Source: an uncultured Actinomycetes bacterium
Lineage (GTDB): Bacteria > Actinomycetota > UBA4738 > HRBIN12
Length of the DNA stretch: 64,000 nt
Assembly (NCBI GenBank): GCA_963697875.1
Contig: OY969099.1
Span: forward strand, 2,458,736-2,522,735
Direction of reading: 5' to 3'
How positions within the stretch are numbered: position 1 is the first letter of the stretch; each line of letters starts with the position of its first letter. A program made the position numbers and the translations under genes. Below, one piece after another: positions 10,226 to 55,653 of this stretch. The notes under the pieces were generated by a model. The model had not been told where the DNA came from, did no database searches, and saw only the letters and a program-made list of their open reading frames with translations.

Positions 10226-10375
10226 CCTATACTCTTGGGCAAGCCTGTTTCCGGGGCGGGGTGGAAGTCCCCACCGGCGGTGACAGTCCGCGACCCCGCG
10301 GCAACCAGTCGTGGGTGGACCCGGTGCGATTCCGGGACCGACCGTGAGAGTCGGGATGAGAGGAACGGGCGCCGG
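10226..10375 (+). promoter_or_regulatory. FMN riboswitch (RFN element) upstream of ribD
   Basis: conserved RFN core ...ggggcggggtggaagtccccaccggcggtgacagtccgcgacc...ggaccgaccgtgagagtcgggatgagaggaa directly 5' of the rib operon. Confidence 0.85.
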
Positions 10376-10436
10376 CGTGGCCGCGCATGTGGCGGCGCGC
10401 GTCGTGTCGTTCCCGCCCCGGGGTGAAGGGGTGTGG

Positions 10437-20423: not shown

Positions 20424-21344
20424 ATGATGCGCGACTACCTTTCAGTCGACGACCTCTCACCGGACGAGCTCGCCCACGTCCTCGAGCTGGCCGCGTCGCT
20501 CAAGGCCGACCGGTCGCTCCACTCGACCGCGCTCGCCGGCAGGACGGTCGCGCTGATCTTCGAGAAGTCGTCGACGCGCACCCGAGTGTCGTTCGAGGTC
20601 GGCGTGTCCCAGCTCGGCGCCCGTCCCCTCACGCTGTCGTCCACCGACCTGCAGCTTGGGCGCGGGGAGACGATCGAGGACACAGGCCGCGTCCTCTCCC
20701 GCTACGTCGACGCGATCGTGCTGCGCACATTCGAGCAGGAGCGGCTGGAGGTCCTCGCCGCCGCCGCGACCGTGCCCGTCGTCAACTCGTTGTCGGACTT
20801 CGAGCATCCGTGCCAGGCGCTGGCCGACCTGATGACCATCCGGGAGCGGTTCGGCGACCTCGAAGGCCGGATCCTCACCTACGTCGGCGACGGCAACAAC
20901 GTCGCGCATTCGCTGCTGCTCGCCGGCGCCAAGACCGGGATGCAGGTGCGGGTGGCCACGCCGCCGGGGTTCGAGCCGATCCCGCAGGTGGCGCAACGGG
21001 CGCGTGGGATCGCCGCGGACACCGGGGGCTCGGTGGAGATCGGCAACGATGCGCAGGACGCCGCGACCGGCGCGCACGTGCTGTACACGGACGTCTGGGC
21101 AAGCATGGGGAAGGAGCGGGAGGCCGACGAGCGGGCCCTGGTGTTCCCGGCGTACCAGCTGAACCAGAAGCTGGTCGACGTCGCGGCACCCGACGTGGTG
21201 GTGTTGCATTGTCTGCCGGCGCATCGCGGGCTGGAGATCACCGATGAGGTGATCGACGGGCCGCGCTCAGCCGTGTGGGACCAGGCGGAGAACCGCCTGC
21301 ACTCGCAGAAGGCCCTCGTGCTCTTCCTGTTCGGGATCGCCTGA
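20424..21344 (+). CDS. argF: ornithine carbamoyltransferase
   Basis: STRTR carbamoyl-phosphate motif and HCLP motif, 306 aa. Confidence 0.9.
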   Translation: MMRDYLSVDDLSPDELAHVLELAASLKADRSLHSTALAGRTVALIFEKSSTRTRVSFEVGVSQLGARPLTLSSTDLQLGRGETIEDTGRVLSRYVDAIVLRTFEQERLEVLAAAATVPVVNSLSDFEHPCQALADLMTIRERFGDLEGRILTYVGDGNNVAHSLLLAGAKTGMQVRVATPPGFEPIPQVAQRARGIAADTGGSVEIGNDAQDAATGAHVLYTDVWASMGKEREADERALVFPAYQLNQKLVDVAAPDVVVLHCLPAHRGLEITDEVIDGPRSAVWDQAENRLHSQKALVLFLFGIA

Positions 21345-25980: not shown

Positions 25981-27192
25981 ATGCGCGCCGACGCGCTCAC
26001 CCAGCTGAAGACCGGAACCGCCGAGATCCACCCGGAAGACGGCCTCGAGCAGAAGCTGGCTCTCGGACGCCCCCTGCGCGTGAAGTTCGGCATCGACCCG
26101 AGCCGCCCGGACCTCACGCTCGGCCATACCGTCGTGCTGCGGAAGCTCCGCCAGTTCCAGGACGCCGGCCACGTGGCGGTGCTGATCGTGGGCGACTTCA
26201 CCGCGAGGATCGGCGACCCTTCGGGTCTGTCGCAGACCCGGCCGATGCTCAGCGAGGAAGAGGTGGCGGCGAACGCGCGGACGTACTTCGAGCAGGCGGG
26301 GAAGGTCATCGACGTCGAGCGCGCCGATGTCCACGGGAACGCGGCGTGGAACGCCTCGATGGACATGTCGCAGCTGCTCCGGCTCGCGTCGACCACCACC
26401 GTGGCCCAGATGCTCGAGCGAGAGGACTTCGGGGCGCGGTATCGGGGCGGTCAGCCCATCAGCGTCGTCGAGCTGCTCTACCCGTTGTTCCAAGGCTACG
26501 ACTCGGTCGCGGTCGAGGCGGACGTCGAGCTCGGTGGCACCGATCAGATGTTCAACCTGTTGATGGGGCGGGAGGTCCAACGCGCCTACGGGCAGGACCC
26601 GCAGGTCGTGCTCACGATGCCGCTACTCGAGGGGATCGACGGGGTCAGGAAGATGTCCAAGTCCTTCGGGAACTACGTCGCCCTCACCGATCCCCCGGAA
26701 GAGATGTTCGGAAAGCTGATGTCGATCCCGGACGACCTGATCGCGAAGTACGAACTGCTGTGTGCGGGGTTCCACGACCACGACCGCGTGGTGGCGGGAC
26801 TCGCCGACGGCACGATCCACCCGAACGAGGAGAAACGACGTATGGCGCGCGCCATCGTGGGCCTCTACCACGGCGAAGGCGCCGGGACCGCCGCCGAGGA
26901 ACGATTCGACCAGGTCCATATCGAGCACGAGATCCCCCACGACGTCCCCGACGTGAACCTCTCCGCGGACGCGATCCGGAACGGGAGGGTCTGGCTCCCG
27001 CGGATGCTGGTGGCGGCCGGGCTCGCCGCATCCAATGGCGACGCCCGACGGAAGGTCACCGAGGGCGGGGTTCGCCTCGATGGCGAGCGCCTCGCGGACC
27101 CGGACGCCGAGTTCGACCCGAACGAGCTGATGGGGAAGGTCCTGCAGGTGGGCCGTCGCAGGTTCGTCCGCATCGCCGGTGTCGTAGAATAG
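25981..27192 (+). CDS. tyrS: tyrosine--tRNA ligase
   Basis: HIGH-like LTLGH and KMSKS motifs; C-terminal S4-like domain. Confidence 0.9.
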   Translation: MRADALTQLKTGTAEIHPEDGLEQKLALGRPLRVKFGIDPSRPDLTLGHTVVLRKLRQFQDAGHVAVLIVGDFTARIGDPSGLSQTRPMLSEEEVAANARTYFEQAGKVIDVERADVHGNAAWNASMDMSQLLRLASTTTVAQMLEREDFGARYRGGQPISVVELLYPLFQGYDSVAVEADVELGGTDQMFNLLMGREVQRAYGQDPQVVLTMPLLEGIDGVRKMSKSFGNYVALTDPPEEMFGKLMSIPDDLIAKYELLCAGFHDHDRVVAGLADGTIHPNEEKRRMARAIVGLYHGEGAGTAAEERFDQVHIEHEIPHDVPDVNLSADAIRNGRVWLPRMLVAAGLAASNGDARRKVTEGGVRLDGERLADPDAEFDPNELMGKVLQVGRRRFVRIAGVVE

Positions 27193-27259: not shown

Positions 27260-27495
27260 ACCCGTCCGGCGCGGCTCCCCTCCGCGAGGTCCTCGACCTT
27301 GTCGCGGGGGGCGTTTGCGCGTCGCACGGACCTTGAGAACTGAACAGCGTGATAGCCAGTGCCTCGTCGAGAGCGGGCGCGGTTCGCCGTGCCCGACCTT
27401 GGACGACCGTACGAAACACGATGAACCGCCCGGCAACGGGCGGGTCAGGAACTGGCCGGCGCGAGGTGCCTCTCGGGCCGGCCGAATTCTCTACG

Positions 27496-29015
<1,520 letters not shown>

Positions 29016-30356
29016 AGCCGTTGGCACTTCGGCGATCCGACGACCACGTCGGGTCATGCATGCCGGAAGACTCCAGGTCAATCACTGGCTCGCCGTCGAG
29101 GCGTGATGGGATCACCCTTCGCGTTGCGGCGGCACACGCTGTTCAGCTTTGAGGGTCCGTGCCCTCGAGCACCTTGAGAACTCGATAGCGAGCGCGAGCA
29201 TCTACAAACAGTCAAGTTATGAAGGGCTTACGGTGGATGCCTTGGCGCCAGGAGCCGATGAAGGACGCGTCTGGCTGCGAAAAGCTTCGGGGAGCTGCCG
29301 AGAGAGCTTTGATCCGGAGATGTCCGAATGGGGAAACCCGGCCGGGGTCATGCCCGGTCACCCGTCGCTGAACACATAGGCGACGTGGAGGGAACCGCCC
29401 GAAGTGAAACATCTCAGTAGGGCGAGGAAGGGAAAGCAACCGCGACTCCCCCAGTAGCGGCGAGCGAACGGGGAAGAGCCTAAACCGGTACGGTGCGATA
29501 GCCCGACGGCGTTGCCGTACCGGGGTCGTGGGACCTGCGTGGATCCTCGTCGGAGGGTCTGAGGAGTGACAAAGTCGACGTCTAGACGAAGGCCATGGAA
29601 AGGGCCGCCGCAGCGGGTAACAGCCCCGTAGTCGAAAGGCGAGCGACCTCCTTGCAGTGTTCCCGAGTAGCACGGGACCCCGGAAATCCCGTGCGAATCC
29701 GGGGGGACCACCCCCTAAGGCTAAGCACTCCCTGGCGACCGATAGTGAACCAGTACCGTGAGGGAAAGGTGAAAAGCACCCCGGGAGGGGAGTGAAAGAG
29801 CACCTGAAACCGTGAGCCTACAAACAGTCGGAGCTCCACCTGGGCAACCAGGTGGGGTGACGGCGTGCCTTTTGAAGAATGAGCCGGCGAGTTAGCGGTG
29901 CGCGGCGAGGTTAAGTCTTCTGACGAAGCCGAAGCGAAAGCGAGTCTGCATGGGGCGAAGAGTCGCGTGCCCTAGACCCGAAGCCGAGTGATCTACCCAT
30001 GGGCAGGTTGAAGCGAGGGTAAGACCTCGTGGAGGACCGAACCCACCAGGGTTGAAAACCTGGGGGATGACCTGTGGGTAGGGGTGAAAGGCCAATCAAA
30101 CTCGGTGATAGCTGGTTCTCCCCGAAATGCCTTTAGGGGCAGCCTCGGGCGTTCTCCGACGGAGGTAGAGCACTGATTGGGCTAGGGGGCCTACAAGCTT
30201 ACCGACCTCAGTCAAACTCCGAATGCCGTCGGACCAGAGCTCGGGAGTGAGGGCGCGGGGGCTAAGCTCCGTGTCCGAGAGGGAAACAACCCAGATCGCC
30301 AGCTAAGGTCCCTAAGTTCGTGCTAAGTGGGTAAGGATGTGGGATCGCCCAGACAA

Positions 30357-30414
<58 letters not shown>

Positions 30415-31361
30415 AAGTGGTCCTGCGCCGACGATGTATCGGGGCTCAAGCACGACACCGAAGCTGCGGGATCCACCGTATCGCTCGGCCCACGGGGGAG
30501 GCCTCGTGGGTCCAGGCGGGTGGATCGGTAGGGGAGCGTTCTGACGCGCGTGAAGCCGCGGGGGAACCCAGCGGTGGACGCGTCAGAAGTGAGAATGCCG
30601 GCATGAGTAGCGAAAGACGGGGGAGGAACCCGTCCGCCGAATGCCCAAGGGTTCCTGGGGAAGGTTCATCCGCCCAGGGTTAGTCGGGACCTAAGCCGAG
30701 GCCGAGAGGCGTAGGCGATGGACGACTGGTTGATATTCCAGTACCACCTTGATCGCGCCCAGGCCGAATCCACGGCGCTAAGGGAACCCCTTCGGGGGCT
30801 ACCGACCCTCGTGGTACTAGGCCAGCGATGGGGGGACGCAGGAAGGTAGCTCGACCCAGGCGTTGGTCGTCCTGGGGCAAGTGCGTAGGGAGGCCTCCCA
30901 GGCAAATCCGGGGGGTCGATCCTGAGGCACGATGCCGAACCGTCTAGGTGAAGCGAGTGATCCTATGCTGCCGAGAAAAGCCTCTAGCGAGTGATCAAGG
31001 TGCCCGTACCCCAAACCGACACAGGTGGGCACGTAGAGAATACGAAGGCGATCGAGAGAACCCTGGTCAAGGAACTCGGCAAATTGCGTCCGTAACTTCG
31101 GGAGAAGGACGACCGCGTTAGGGTGAAGGACTTCGCGTTCCGAGCCCGAAGCGGTGGCACAGACCAGGCCCAAGCGACTGTTTACTAAAAACACAGGTCC
31201 GTGCGAAGTCGTAAGACGATGTATACGGACTGACGCCTGCCCGGTGCCGGAACGTTAAGGGGAGAGGTCAGTGGCTTCGGCCGCGAAGCTTTGAACCCAA
31301 GCGCCGGTAAACGGCGGCGGTAACTATAACCGTCCTAAGGTAGCGAAATTCCTTGTCAGGT

Positions 31362-32114
31362 AACGAAAGTTGCCTTGCGCCGGAGCGATCCGGCGTGCAG
31401 ACCCGCTCATAACGGCGAAGCCCTCACCGACTGCCCCGACCAAGGACGGGGCGATAGGCGGCGGGCGATGCCGTGGGAAGCCCTCTGTCCCTCCGGGACA
31501 TGGCCCCGTAACGACTGATCCCGATATGGGTGACGCTTCGGTCCTGTCACACTTCGCCGATACGGTTCGAGGGTGACAAATCTATGGCCGGGGCGATACG
31601 CGGGCTCTCACGCGATGCTCGTGGATCTGCCGTCGTACATCTCGGGATACTTCGACGGCGAGGGCTGCTTCACCGTTTCCATCGCACCTCGGCCGAGGCT
31701 GATGGTGGGTTGGGAGGTGAGGCCAAGCGTCTCGGTCAGCCAGAACGGCGACCGCTCCGAGGTCCTGTTAGAGATTCAACGGTTCTTCGGGTGCGGAAGT
31801 CTCAGGCCCGATCGAAGCGACAAGACGCTCAAATGGGAGGTGCGAAGCCTTCCGTTCCTCTTGGAACGGGTGCTCCCTCACTTCCGAGCATATCCCTTGC
31901 TGTCGGGGAAACGCCGTGACTTCGAGCTACTCGATCGCATCTGCCGATCGATGGCCGAGGGCCGGCACCTGACCGTGGACGGATTGGCCGGTATCGTGCG
32001 TTTGGCCGCTCAGATGAATCCGAGTGGTTCGCGCCGATACCGACCCGACGAGATCCTCGAGCGCTTGAGATGAAGGCATAGTCTGCCCCCTCCGGAAACG
32101 GGGGGATCAAGGTG
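31362..32114 (+). mobile_element. group I-type intron in 23S rRNA (E. coli-equivalent position about U1951) carrying a LAGLIDADG homing-endonuclease ORF
   Basis: the conserved 23S stretch ...CCTTGTCAGGT|...|AAGTTCTGACCTGCACGAATGGCGTAACGA is split by 753 nt; the 5' exon ends in U and the insert ends in G (group I hallmarks); the insert begins aacgaaagttgccttgc, whose GCCT can pair with exon AGGU (P1). Confidence 0.8.
31573..32073 (+). CDS. LAGLIDADG-family homing endonuclease (single-motif, I-CreI-like), intron-encoded
   Basis: motif LPSYISGYFDGEGCF near the N-terminus, 150-166 aa; the likely true start is the ATG at about 31615 (MLVDLPSYISGYFDGEGCF). Confidence 0.8.
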   Translation: MTNLWPGRYAGSHAMLVDLPSYISGYFDGEGCFTVSIAPRPRLMVGWEVRPSVSVSQNGDRSEVLLEIQRFFGCGSLRPDRSDKTLKWEVRSLPFLLERVLPHFRAYPLLSGKRRDFELLDRICRSMAEGRHLTVDGLAGIVRLAAQMNPSGSRRYRPDEILERLR

Positions 32115-32678
32115 AAGTTCTGACCTGCACGAATGGCGTAACGACTTGGGCACTGTCTCGACCAGGGACTCGGCGAAATTGCAATACGAGTAAAGATGCT
32201 CGTTACCCGCAGCAGGACGGAAAGACCCCGGGACCTTTACTGCAGCTTGATGTTGGGTTTTGGCATGTGTTGCGTAGGATAGGTGGGAGACGGTGAAGCC
32301 GCGCTTCCGGGCGTGGTGGAGTCAACCTTGAAATACCACCCTTCACCTGTTGGGACTCTAACCCAGGCCCGTGATCCGGGTCGGGGACAGCGTCTGGTGG
32401 GCAGTTTAACTGGGGCGGTTGCCTCCTAAAGCGTAACGGAGGCGCCCAAAGGTTCCCTCAGTCTGGTTGGCAATCAGGCGTCGAGTGCAAGGGCACAAGG
32501 GAGCTTGACTGCGAGACCGACAGGTCGAGCAGGAGCGAAAGCTGGGCCTAGTGATCCGACGGCTCCATGTGGAAGGGCCGTCGCTCAACGGATAAAAGGT
32601 ACCCCGGGGATAACAGGCTGATCCTTCCCAAGAGTCCATATCGACGGAAGGGTTTGGCACCTCGATGTCGGCTCGTCT

Positions 32679-32729
<51 letters not shown>

Positions 32730-32748
32730 AGGCACGCGAGCTGGGTTT

Positions 32749-32781
<33 letters not shown>

Positions 32782-33140
32782 TGTGGGCGTAGGAAGCTTG
32801 ACGGGAGCTGCCCCTAGTACGAGAGGACCGGGGCGGACGAACCTCTGGTGTGCCAGTTGTCGCGCCAGCGGCACGGCTGGTTGGCCACGTTCGGAAGGGA
32901 TAAGCGCTGAAAGCATCTAAGTGCGAAGCTCGCCCGGAGATGAGGCTTCCCACCGGGAAACCGGGTAAGGCCCGTGGAAGACCACCACGTCGATAGGCGG
33001 GAAGTGGAAGCACGGTGACGTGTGGAGCTGACCCGTACTAATAGGCCGAGGACTTGACTCTATTTGCTCGCGCTCGCTATCGCGTCTCTCGAGCTCTGCT
33101 CGAGGCACGCGCCCTCACCATCGTCCGTGATGGACACCGC

Positions 33141-33258
33141 GTTTCGGTAGCCATGGCGGAGGGGGAACACCCGGTCCCATCCCGAACCCGGAAGTTAAGC
33201 CCTCCAGCGCCGATGGTACTGCCCGGGTGACTGGGTGGGAGAGTAGGTCGCTGCCGAG
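33141..33258 (+). rRNA. rrf: 5S ribosomal RNA
   Basis: gtttcggtagccatggcggagggg...cccgaacccggaagttaagcc...gggagagtaggtcgctgccgag. Confidence 0.92.
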
Positions 33259-33274
33259 ACATCTTCGCGACACG

Positions 33275-46395: not shown

Positions 46396-47724
46396 ATGAG
46401 CGCATGGGATCCCCGGGCGGTCGTCGCGGCAAAGCGGGACGGCAAGACGCTTCCTCCGGAGGAGGTCGAGCGTTTCGTGCTCGCCCACGCTCGCGGTGAG
46501 ATCGGGGACCCACTCGCCGCGGCCTTCCTGATGGCGTCGTTGCTGAACGGGCTCGACGCCACCGAGACGCTCGCGATGACTCGCGCGATGATCGCCTCCG
46601 GGGAAACGGTGGCCTTTCCGGGACTGCGGTGCGCCTCGGTGGACAAGCACTCGACGGGCGGCGTGGCCGACGGGGTCACGCTCGTCTTCGCGCCGCTGGC
46701 GGCCTCGCTCGGTCTGGCGGTGGCCAAGCTCTCCGGTCGCGGGCTCGGTCACACAGGCGGGACGCTGGACAAGCTCGAGTCGATCCCCGGACTCCGCACC
46801 GACCTCACACCAGCGGAGATCGAACGGCAGGTCGAGCGGGTGGGCTGTGCCGTGGCGGCCCAGTCACCGACCCTGGTGCCGGCCGACGGCGCCCTGTACG
46901 CGCTCCGCGACGCCACCTCGACCGTCCCGTCGGTGCCCCTGATCGCGGCAAGCGTGATGTCGAAGAAGCTCGCCGTCGAGACGGATCTGATCCTGCTGGA
47001 CGTGAAGGTCGGATCGGGCGCCTTCATGAAGACCGTCGAGGATGCCGATGGCCTCGCCGCGGCATGCCTGGTGTTGGCCCGGGGGGCCGGCCGGAGATGC
47101 GGCGTCGCGGTGACGGACATGAGCCAGCCGCTCGGGGACGCGGTCGGCAACGCCCTCGACGTTGCGGAGGCGATCCGCGTTCTCCGCGGCGAGGACCGCG
47201 GACGGCTCCGCGACCTGGCGGTGTGGTTCGCGGCCCGCGCCCTCGAGTCGCTCGAGGGTATGGCGTTCGCGGACGCGCTGGATCGAGCCGCCCGAACGCT
47301 CGACGCGGGGGACGCGCTGGACCGGTTCAGCCGCATGGTCGAGGCGCAGGGCGGCGACCCCCGCGTCGTCGAGGACCCGCACGGTGTCCTGCCGCACGCG
47401 CGGGTCGTGGTCCCGCTCACGGCCGACCGGGGCGGCGTGCTCGCCGCGGTGGACGCCGAGGAGATCGGTCTGGCCAGCGGGGCACTGGGCGCCGGAAGGA
47501 TGCAGAAGGGTGATGCCGTCGACCCCGCGGTCGGTATCGTGATCCGTTCCAAGATCGGCGACGTGCTGGAGCGGGGGCAGCCGATCGGCGAGGTGCATGC
47601 GCGGGACGAGGGCGCGGCGGCGGAGGCCGCCCGTCGGGTGCTCGAAGCGCTCACGCTCGCCGACGCGGCCGTCGAGGCACCGCCGTTGATCCACGCGTGG
47701 CTGGGGGAAGGGGTCCGGTCGTGA
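46396..47724 (+). CDS. deoA: thymidine / pyrimidine-nucleoside phosphorylase
   Basis: glycosyl-transferase family 3 motifs (DKHSTGGVADG...TGGTLDKLESIPG). Confidence 0.9.
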   Translation: MSAWDPRAVVAAKRDGKTLPPEEVERFVLAHARGEIGDPLAAAFLMASLLNGLDATETLAMTRAMIASGETVAFPGLRCASVDKHSTGGVADGVTLVFAPLAASLGLAVAKLSGRGLGHTGGTLDKLESIPGLRTDLTPAEIERQVERVGCAVAAQSPTLVPADGALYALRDATSTVPSVPLIAASVMSKKLAVETDLILLDVKVGSGAFMKTVEDADGLAAACLVLARGAGRRCGVAVTDMSQPLGDAVGNALDVAEAIRVLRGEDRGRLRDLAVWFAARALESLEGMAFADALDRAARTLDAGDALDRFSRMVEAQGGDPRVVEDPHGVLPHARVVVPLTADRGGVLAAVDAEEIGLASGALGAGRMQKGDAVDPAVGIVIRSKIGDVLERGQPIGEVHARDEGAAAEAARRVLEALTLADAAVEAPPLIHAWLGEGVRS

Positions 47725-55575: not shown

Positions 55576-55650
55576 CGGGCCGTGGCGCAGCTTGGTTAGC
55601 GCGTCTGACTGGGGGTCAGAAGGTCGCCGGTTCGAATCCGGCCGGCCCGA
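55576..55650 (+). tRNA. tRNA-Pro (anticodon GGG)
   Basis: cloverleaf: acceptor CGGGCCG/CGGCCCG, D-arm GCGC-AGCUUGGUUA-GCGC, anticodon stem UCUGA/UCAGA with loop CUGGGGG, T-arm GCCGG-UUCGAAU-CCGGC; CCA not encoded. Confidence 0.85.
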
Positions 55651-55653
55651 CCG

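Follow-up and report, generated by a model that had tools for sequence, protein, structure and literature searches.

The 753-nucleotide segment at positions 31362–32114 of the 64-kb stretch of DNA analysed here (the window, to which all coordinates refer) interrupts the 23S ribosomal RNA (rRNA) gene of a high-GC, Actinomycetota-like bacterium. We conclude with high confidence that this segment is a mobile group I intron of IA type, with helices P7.1 and P7.2, that is inserted at position 1951 of the large-subunit (LSU) rRNA (L1951, E. coli numbering) and that carries a gene for a single-motif LAGLIDADG homing endonuclease in the loop of its helix P8. Established directly were the insertion site with its exact borders, an RNA structure that is conserved and covaries, the family of the protein and, from codon positions, evidence of selection on the ORF. 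The host gene and the intron are placed as follows.

29210–33061, plus strand: host 23S rRNA gene, with exon 1 at 29210–31361 and exon 2 at 32115–33061 (RF02541, 2708.7 bits, model positions 1–2925; alignment to E. coli rrl).
31362–32114, plus strand: group I intron, IA type, 753 nucleotides, after E. coli U1951 (L1951).

The window contains one rrn operon, detected with Rfam models, with 16S, 23S and 5S genes at 27490–29009, 29210–33061 and 33143–33259 respectively. The 23S gene measures 3852 nucleotides against the 2925 positions of the RF02541 model, and the match spans the entire model. Global alignment of this gene to the annotated E. coli rrl placed a single insertion of 753 nucleotides at 31362–32114, exactly the coordinates given by an earlier reading of the sequence made without database searches (hereafter the sequence-only reading). 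The annotated rrl copy begins one base late, so that its base 1950, after which the insertion falls, is U1951 in standard numbering; the insert thus lies directly 3' of U1951, in the loop of helix 71, which confirms the site that the same reading had named. The exon flanks are CCTTGTCAGGT / intron / AAGTTCTGACCTGCACGAATGG, and helix 71 of the host is the A1948:U1958 variant. As had also been read from the letters, the last base of the 5' exon is U (31361) and that of the insert is G (32114). Because intron and 3' exon both begin with AA, the junction in the window can slide by up to 2 nucleotides; it is fixed at U1951|A1952 by relatives whose introns begin with G (loci L004, L005, L017 and others, numbered from the collection described below). 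Five more small insertions relative to E. coli occur in the same 23S gene, at 29487–29528 (42 nucleotides), 29560–29595 (36), 29844–29853 (10), 30482–30517 (36) and 30746–30811 (66), near E. coli positions 274, 305, 549, 1175 and 1404 respectively; these are presumably lineage-specific expansion segments.

Relatives of the intron were collected through its endonuclease. A protein search returned 3013 homologues, and the best 120 of these 3013 were 67–100% identical and lay nearly all on short contigs. Encoding loci were recovered from GTDB species genomes in six cases (three Acidimicrobiaceae metagenome-assembled genomes, or MAGs, one Acidimicrobiia, one Actinomycetota and one bin labelled Acidobacteriaceae) and from metagenomes in 40 more; among the relatives with a label, most are MAGs of Acidimicrobiia or Actinomycetota. 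Both exon flanks were present in 37 sources, the window included, which gave 36 distinct sequences once duplicates were removed. The insertion nucleotide was identical in 37 of 37 sources, the inserts being 724–765 nucleotides long, and all 36 distinct sequences ended in G.

The RNA structure was read by comparing the non-coding parts of these relatives, and the resulting model, built by hand, comprises 89 base pairs. Each test sequence had its open reading frame (ORF) deleted and consisted of 10 nucleotides of exon, the 5' part of the intron through P8, the 3' part from P8' onwards and 10 nucleotides of exon; the 36 sequences were aligned with MAFFT without structural guidance. The 89 pairs were standard in 95.0% of 3101 cells, compared with 38–43% when the 3' partners were slid by 1–3 columns. 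Compensatory changes, altering both sides of a pair, were found at 55 of the 89 pairs, and the covariation score was 0.351 versus 0.05–0.08 for the slid controls. None of 500 shuffles reached the observed value on any of five measures. RNAalifold, run on the same alignment and blind to the hand-built model, drew P1, P2, P3, P4, P5, P5a, P6, P6a, P7.1, P7.2, P8, P9.0 and P9, with compensatory changes at 44 of its 77 pairs, and continued P1 on the intron side by two further pairs, of which one covaries; the program cannot draw pseudoknots, and the pseudoknotted P7 is not among its helices. Folded alone, the ORF-deleted window intron gave a z score of −3.46, with most hairpins recovered. Manual folding of P1 to P9, which the sequence-only reading had named as a check, yielded a structure with a P3/P7 pseudoknot that is 95.0% paired across the 36 sequences. 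The helices are listed below in order of their first strand.

31358–31375, plus strand: P1, exon AGGU (31358–31361) and intron AA (31362–31363) against the guide UUGCCU (31370–31375); 99% paired.
31376–31397, plus strand: P2 hairpin of 9 bp with a GCGA (GNRA-type) loop at 31385–31388; 9 of 9 pairs compensatory.
31402–31406, plus strand: P3 5' strand CCCGC, pairing with GCGGG at 31600–31604 in a pseudoknot with P7; 100% paired, drawn by RNAalifold too.
31412–31474, plus strand: P4–P5 domain, with P4 at 31412–31417/31469–31474 and P5 at 31420–31423/31463–31466.
31428–31433/31455–31460, plus strand: P5a, followed by P5b at 31434–31438/31447–31451.
31475–31507, plus strand: P6, 31475–31477 and 31480–31482 against 31502–31507 with an AA bulge, and P6a at 31487–31491/31495–31499.
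31513–31517, plus strand: P7 5' strand GACUG, after J6/7 GUAAC, pairing with UAGUC at 32079–32083.
31519–31594, plus strand: P7.1 at 31519–31522/31528–31531, P7.2 at 31535–31543/31586–31594 and P7.2a at 31546–31550/31573–31577.
31600–31604, plus strand: P3 3' strand GCGGG, identified by covariation.
31606–32070, plus strand: P8, UCUCA (31606–31610) against UGAGA (32066–32070), closing a 455-nucleotide loop that holds the ORF.
32071–32083, plus strand: J8/7 UGAAGGCA and the P7 3' strand UAGUC.
32085–32114, plus strand: P9.0, GCC (32085–32087) against GGU (32111–32113), P9 at 32088–32094/32099–32105 with a GAAA loop, and the terminal guanosine (omegaG) at 32114.

At the 5' splice site, the wobble pair U31361.G31372 marks the exon–intron border, and U.G was found at this position in 36 of 36 sequences. 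The pair between exon position −4 and the guide is G-C in 33 sequences and A-U in two, namely the window and L007; the hosts of both have A1948, so that the guide tracks the host variant. The pair between intron position +2 and the guide is AU in 27 sequences and GC in nine. The sequence-only reading had proposed that GCCU, as the first bases of the insert, pairs with exon AGGU; the pairing stands, the placement does not, since GCCU occupies intron positions 11–14 (31372–31375) and the full P1 has 6 bp.

Helices P3, P4, P5, P6 and P8 were 92–100% paired, all with compensatory changes, and the order of strands P3/P7/P3'/P7' crosses in the manner of the classical group I pseudoknot. The middle pair of P3 is CG in 33 sequences and GC in three (L036, L038 and L041). 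P3' was first taken as a pairing of CGGCGAAG with CUUCGCCG (~31553–31560), which is perfect in the window and was dropped as unconserved in relatives; P3' was assigned to GCGGG at 31600–31604 because that strand covaries. The three helices of the P4–P5 domain were 98%, 82% and 96% paired, with 13 compensatory pairs, and are joined by A-rich segments (AA in J4/5 and GA in J5/4). One pair of P6 (146/178) is CG in 24 sequences and UA in 12. P7 is the presumed guanosine-binding helix. P7.1 (4 bp) and P7.2 (9 + 5 bp) follow P7 and precede the 3' strand of P3, a hallmark of subgroup IA; they were 86–93% paired, and 8 of the 9 main P7.2 pairs showed compensatory changes. An asymmetric internal loop in P7.2, CU opposite AAAUCUAU (31578–31585), is strongly conserved and is a candidate docking site for a GNRA/GAAA tetraloop (L2, L9).

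Towards the 3' end, P8 was 92% paired with 6 of 7 pairs compensatory, and the window forms 5 of the 7. In the region of J8/7 and the 3' strand of P7, the alignment columns reading GAAGGCAUAGUCUG are almost invariant among relatives. P9.0, which has 3 bp and directly precedes omegaG, was 100% paired, its middle pair being UA in 20 sequences and CG in 15; P9 was likewise 100% paired, with 4 of 6 pairs compensatory. A pairing of C31512 with G32085 across a bulged U was considered and dropped, G32085 covarying with the base before omegaG (P9.0).

The loop of P8 contains the gene of the putative homing endonuclease.

31615–32073, plus strand: homing endonuclease ORF, 152 amino acids from an ATG (PF00961).

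The longest frame runs from 31573 to 32073 (166 amino acids, GTG start); its extra part overlaps P7.2, P3' and P8, and the RNA offers the simplest explanation for conservation upstream of the ATG at 31615. The 152-residue version is identical to a protein annotated on an NCBI contig of 3,133,461 bp. Its ATG lies 4 nucleotides inside the P8 loop, its last codons form P8 and its UGA stop (32071–32073) falls in J8/7 (GAUGAAGG). In the relatives, too, the stop is built into the conserved ribozyme core, as UGA in J8/7 or as UAG in the 3' strand of P7 (CAUAGUC), depending on lineage. The protein scored 73.6 bits with the LAGLIDADG_1 family (PF00961), whose cut-off is 23.1 bits (E = 2.7e-20), and the match covered profile positions 1–99 of 102. 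It contains YISGYFDGEGCF and has a single LAGLIDADG motif, ISGYFDGEG, in which the catalytic Glu is kept and which aligns with VTGFVDAEG and LAGFTSGEG of aHE15. An ORF of 150–166 residues with one such motif had been read from the letters alone; the frames found here have 152 and 166 residues.

Searches against PDB aligned residues 20–152 to each half of aHE15 (7.5e-35) and I-PanMI (1.2e-30), with I-OnuI variants at ~1e-27; matches to the I-CreI group were weaker (I-MsoI, 1.8e-11; I-CvuI, 5.8e-9). The protein is presumably a one-domain enzyme acting as a homodimer. Thus the I-CreI-like homodimer of the sequence-only reading holds as an architecture, with one motif and presumed dimerization, and fails as a statement of sequence closeness, the I-OnuI/I-PanMI type being nearer (1e-30 to 1e-35). 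Among 32 relatives with an intact frame, the segment SGYvDGEGCFTVSI, Glu included, and other long stretches of protein were at least 90% conserved, and the mean pairwise differences at codon positions 1, 2 and 3 were 0.24, 0.18 and 0.52, a pattern that points to purifying selection on the ORF. Environmental copies in L031 and L041–L043 looked frameshifted. No family for the protein was found in NCBIfam, and a plasmid collection gave two distant matches only, at ~32% identity, in Peribacillus records.

Divergence of hosts and introns was compared over the downstream exons only; upstream flanks were unusable because second introns there spoiled the comparison. Downstream exons of 16 uninterrupted relatives with enough flank were ~81–90% identical to the window (E. 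coli, 78%), and intron identity to the window was flat at 66–71% across relatives. The correlation between the two was weak (Spearman 0.37) and permits no firm conclusion on the shares of vertical and horizontal spread. Many relatives have a second group I intron 20–34 nucleotides upstream of the L1951 intron. Second introns or inserts were located at 1008–1256 in L005, 952–1213 in L004 and 272–527 in L008, and were also seen in L009, L016, L024, L021, L042 and L045. ORF-less inserts measured 282–335 nucleotides at ~L1931 (six loci) and 273–308 nucleotides at ~L1917 (two loci). In L045, a 635-nucleotide insert with its own LAGLIDADG gene adjoins an empty L1951 site.

From these features we infer catalysis, splicing in vivo and the activity and target of the endonuclease, the individual splicing steps being modelled on the structure. 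P1 would form when the guide UUGCCU pairs across the junction, with the final four bases of the exon and the opening two of the intron, placing U.G at the splice site, and an external guanosine bound in P7 would attack after U31361. The UU of the guide could then switch to the initial AA of exon 2 in a short P10, and P9.0 would place omegaG (32114) in the guanosine site. The freed 3'-OH of exon 1 would attack after omegaG, rejoining helix 71 and releasing the intron, and the ligated exons would read ...CCUUGUCAGGU joined to AAGUUCUGACC. The 152-residue protein, whose message would be either the precursor or the excised intron, would presumably dimerize and cut the intron-less L1951 site, CCTTGTCAGGT|AAGTTCTGACC; repair from an intron-bearing copy would spread the element. 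The target is partly palindromic because its DNA encodes a hairpin, with half-sites GTCAGGT / GTCAGAA, and such a target would suit a homodimer.

Several observations weigh against the interpretation as a mobile group I intron. The potential for P10 amounts to only ~2 bp. All five pairs of P7 are invariant in the 36 sequences and hence conserved but without covariation information, and the window carries single mismatches in P5a (A.G), P7.1 (U.U) and P8 (C.U). No Shine–Dalgarno sequence was evident before the ATG at 31615 when the sequence was read by eye. The remaining rrn copies lie outside the 64-kb window. Finally, RF00028, the Rfam model of the same ribozyme class and the check suggested by the sequence-only reading, does not score the intron: there was no match to 31300–32180 even at E ≤ 10, and the L1951 introns of three relatives (L004, L005 and L008) likewise gave none at E ≤ 0.01. 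The same model gave 48–63 bits on the second, ORF-less upstream introns of L004, L005 and L008, and, of 39 archaeal IA3/IB4 introns picked up by subtype-specific models, it is reported to have found none (Nawrocki et al., PMC6125680). Because the model matches other introns in the relatives and has this documented insensitivity, its miss was not counted as a refutation, and membership in group I rests on the structural features. These are U.G in 36 of 36 sequences, omegaG in 36 of 36, helices P1–P9, the P3/P7 pseudoknot and P9.0, and they support the proposal, first made from the letters, of a group I intron with a LAGLIDADG gene.

The insert could instead be a group I intron by descent that no longer self-splices here, either needing its LAGLIDADG protein as a maturase, or host factors, or sitting in an unused rrn copy. 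Some LAGLIDADG proteins do act as maturases, and both the mismatches noted above and the restriction of the window to one of the rrn copies would fit such a state. We nevertheless consider it unlikely, since 86 of the 89 pairs form in the window, whose core is no less well paired than that of the 35 relatives, the 23S exons are complete (2708.7 bits) and the ORF is intact with its catalytic Glu. Less probable still is an intervening sequence cut out by RNase III without exon ligation, which would leave a fragmented 23S rRNA. Fragmentation of this kind is common in bacteria, and Coxiella has one such intervening sequence; known intervening sequences, however, form short, extended hairpins, located at a small number of variable helices, and are not known to contain an ORF. 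Helix 71, whose loop holds the insert in the window, is conserved, and the insert has a covarying P1 with the exon, P9.0 with omegaG, the P3/P7 pseudoknot and a homing endonuclease gene.

Hardly credible, finally, is a lineage-specific expansion of helix 71 that mature ribosomes retain and whose ORF is a chance frame. The same 23S gene does have five other small expansions of 10–66 nucleotides relative to E. coli, and GC-rich DNA gives many spurious ORFs. Against this, the PF00961 match is far above its cut-off, solved structures were matched at 1e-35 and the ORF diverges as coding sequence does; moreover, in 16 relatives whose exons are only ~81–90% identical to the window the insert occurs at the exact same nucleotide.

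Introns of this kind have been described at the same site. A list of bacterial group I introns with endonuclease genes, compiled in 2007, has one entry at L1951, from Coxiella burnetii, with a length of 720 nucleotides and a 157-residue LAGLIDADG protein, and those of Thermotoga, Simkania and Synechococcus are at L1917, L1931 or L2593 (PMC1995217). Of the three genera that the sequence-only reading had named for U1951, Coxiella is thus borne out, and Thermotoga and Simkania, at L1917 or L1931, are not (PMC1995217). By the published description, the Coxiella intron resembles that of the window in gene, site, length (720 versus 753 nucleotides) and a single-motif LAGLIDADG ORF of ~150–157 residues (PMC1995217 Table 1), and the Coxiella intron pair has been reported as IB2 plus IA3 (PMC10136302). 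The hosts differ, one being a gammaproteobacterial intracellular pathogen and the other high-GC and Actinomycetota-like. Coxiella carries a second intron at L1917, the L1951 member presumably being the IA3 one of the pair; the tandem introns of the relatives recall this arrangement, whereas the 23S gene of the window has the L1951 intron alone.

The Thermotoga, Simkania, Synechococcus and organelle introns are likewise group I introns of LSU rRNA domains IV/V, with one-motif LAGLIDADG proteins of 143–189 residues, the ORFs of which extend into the core of the ribozyme (PMC1995217). The same holds for the window intron, with its stop codon in J8/7 and its last codons in P8. All these introns differ from it in insertion site and in ribozyme architecture. 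I-OnuI-type enzymes are two-domain monomers of ~300 residues, in contrast to the single domain of 152 residues and I-CreI architecture that the sequence of the window protein indicates. Full-text literature searches, whose coverage was incomplete and whose silence is absence of evidence only, returned no report of such an rRNA intron in Actinomycetota. The element is of a known kind and is new mainly for its Actinomycetota-like host lineage, which adds a high-GC host to those known.

Six environmental contigs lacked a match to the 3' exon. In L028 (~1045), the final G runs straight into the first bases of the intron itself, which are identical at 83 of 83 positions to the copy that follows the 5' exon in the same contig. 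The same junction of omegaG to first base is present in L034 (~743), with a diverged second copy (86.5%), and, minus two bases, in L033 (~1343). Such a junction is that of full-length intron circles, which group I ribozymes are known to yield as an alternative product (PMC6274462, PMC3679873). It is possible that the junctions in L028, L034 and L033 come from intron RNA circles, which would lend RNA-level support in relatives; alternatively, they may be tandem DNA copies or assembly artefacts. The circle reading holds only for RNA-derived assemblies, because a circle junction is expected only there. Three Logan contigs examined for circle junctions showed the ordinary exon–intron–exon order. 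In L040 (~1028–1142), what comes after the terminal G of the intron bears no relation to the 23S exon, the intron or the rrn operon of the window; L040 may be a chimeric assembly or represent a different insertion context.

The numbers recovered, 3013 homologues and 36 distinct introns at the one site, point to a sizeable family in the environment. Taking these results together, the window may be the complete-genome representative of a large undescribed clade of IA-type introns at L1951, at home in Actinomycetota of soil and groundwater (Acidimicrobiia and relatives), with hundreds to thousands of variants, often accompanied by a second, ORF-less group I intron 20–34 nucleotides upstream, and with excised RNA that persists as full-length circles. 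We offer this joint reading tentatively, as one that falls somewhat short of probable; if it were true, rRNA group I introns would not be rare in free-living high-GC bacteria.

The intron also has practical consequences. Since it is missed by the standard Rfam model, 23S genes that contain it look ~750 nucleotides too long, or are split or mis-called, which affects annotation and LSU-based phylogeny pipelines, and the embedded endonuclease will be annotated as a free-standing gene. The relatives provide a natural set of compact single-domain LAGLIDADG enzymes, all for one universally conserved 23S site, together with a well-covarying alignment of IA ribozymes that can be used for a better detection model.

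The GC content of the intron (62.7%) is close to that of the rRNA exons (60.7%), against 69.9% for the window, and GC at third codon positions is 75.8% in the endonuclease ORF versus 87–93% in four host genes. The sequence-only reading had taken a shared high GC content as a sign of long residence; this argument is weak, as the intron matches the rRNA exons and not the window and its ORF lies below the host genes. Four proteins of the window, OTCase (20424–21344), TyrS (25981–27192), a pyrimidine-nucleoside phosphorylase (46396–47724) and the endonuclease (31615–32073), were each singletons at 90% identity in a collection of ~15 billion proteins, so that this collection contains no closely related sequenced genome; all four map to a single NCBI contig of 3.13 Mb. 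The 16S–23S spacer (29010–29209) measures 200 nucleotides and has no tRNA gene, the only tRNA gene in the 64 kb being tRNA-Pro(GGG) at 55576–55652. A flavin mononucleotide (FMN) riboswitch (RF00050, 94.8 bits) is located at 10242–10371 on the plus strand, upstream of an ORF that starts near 10433.

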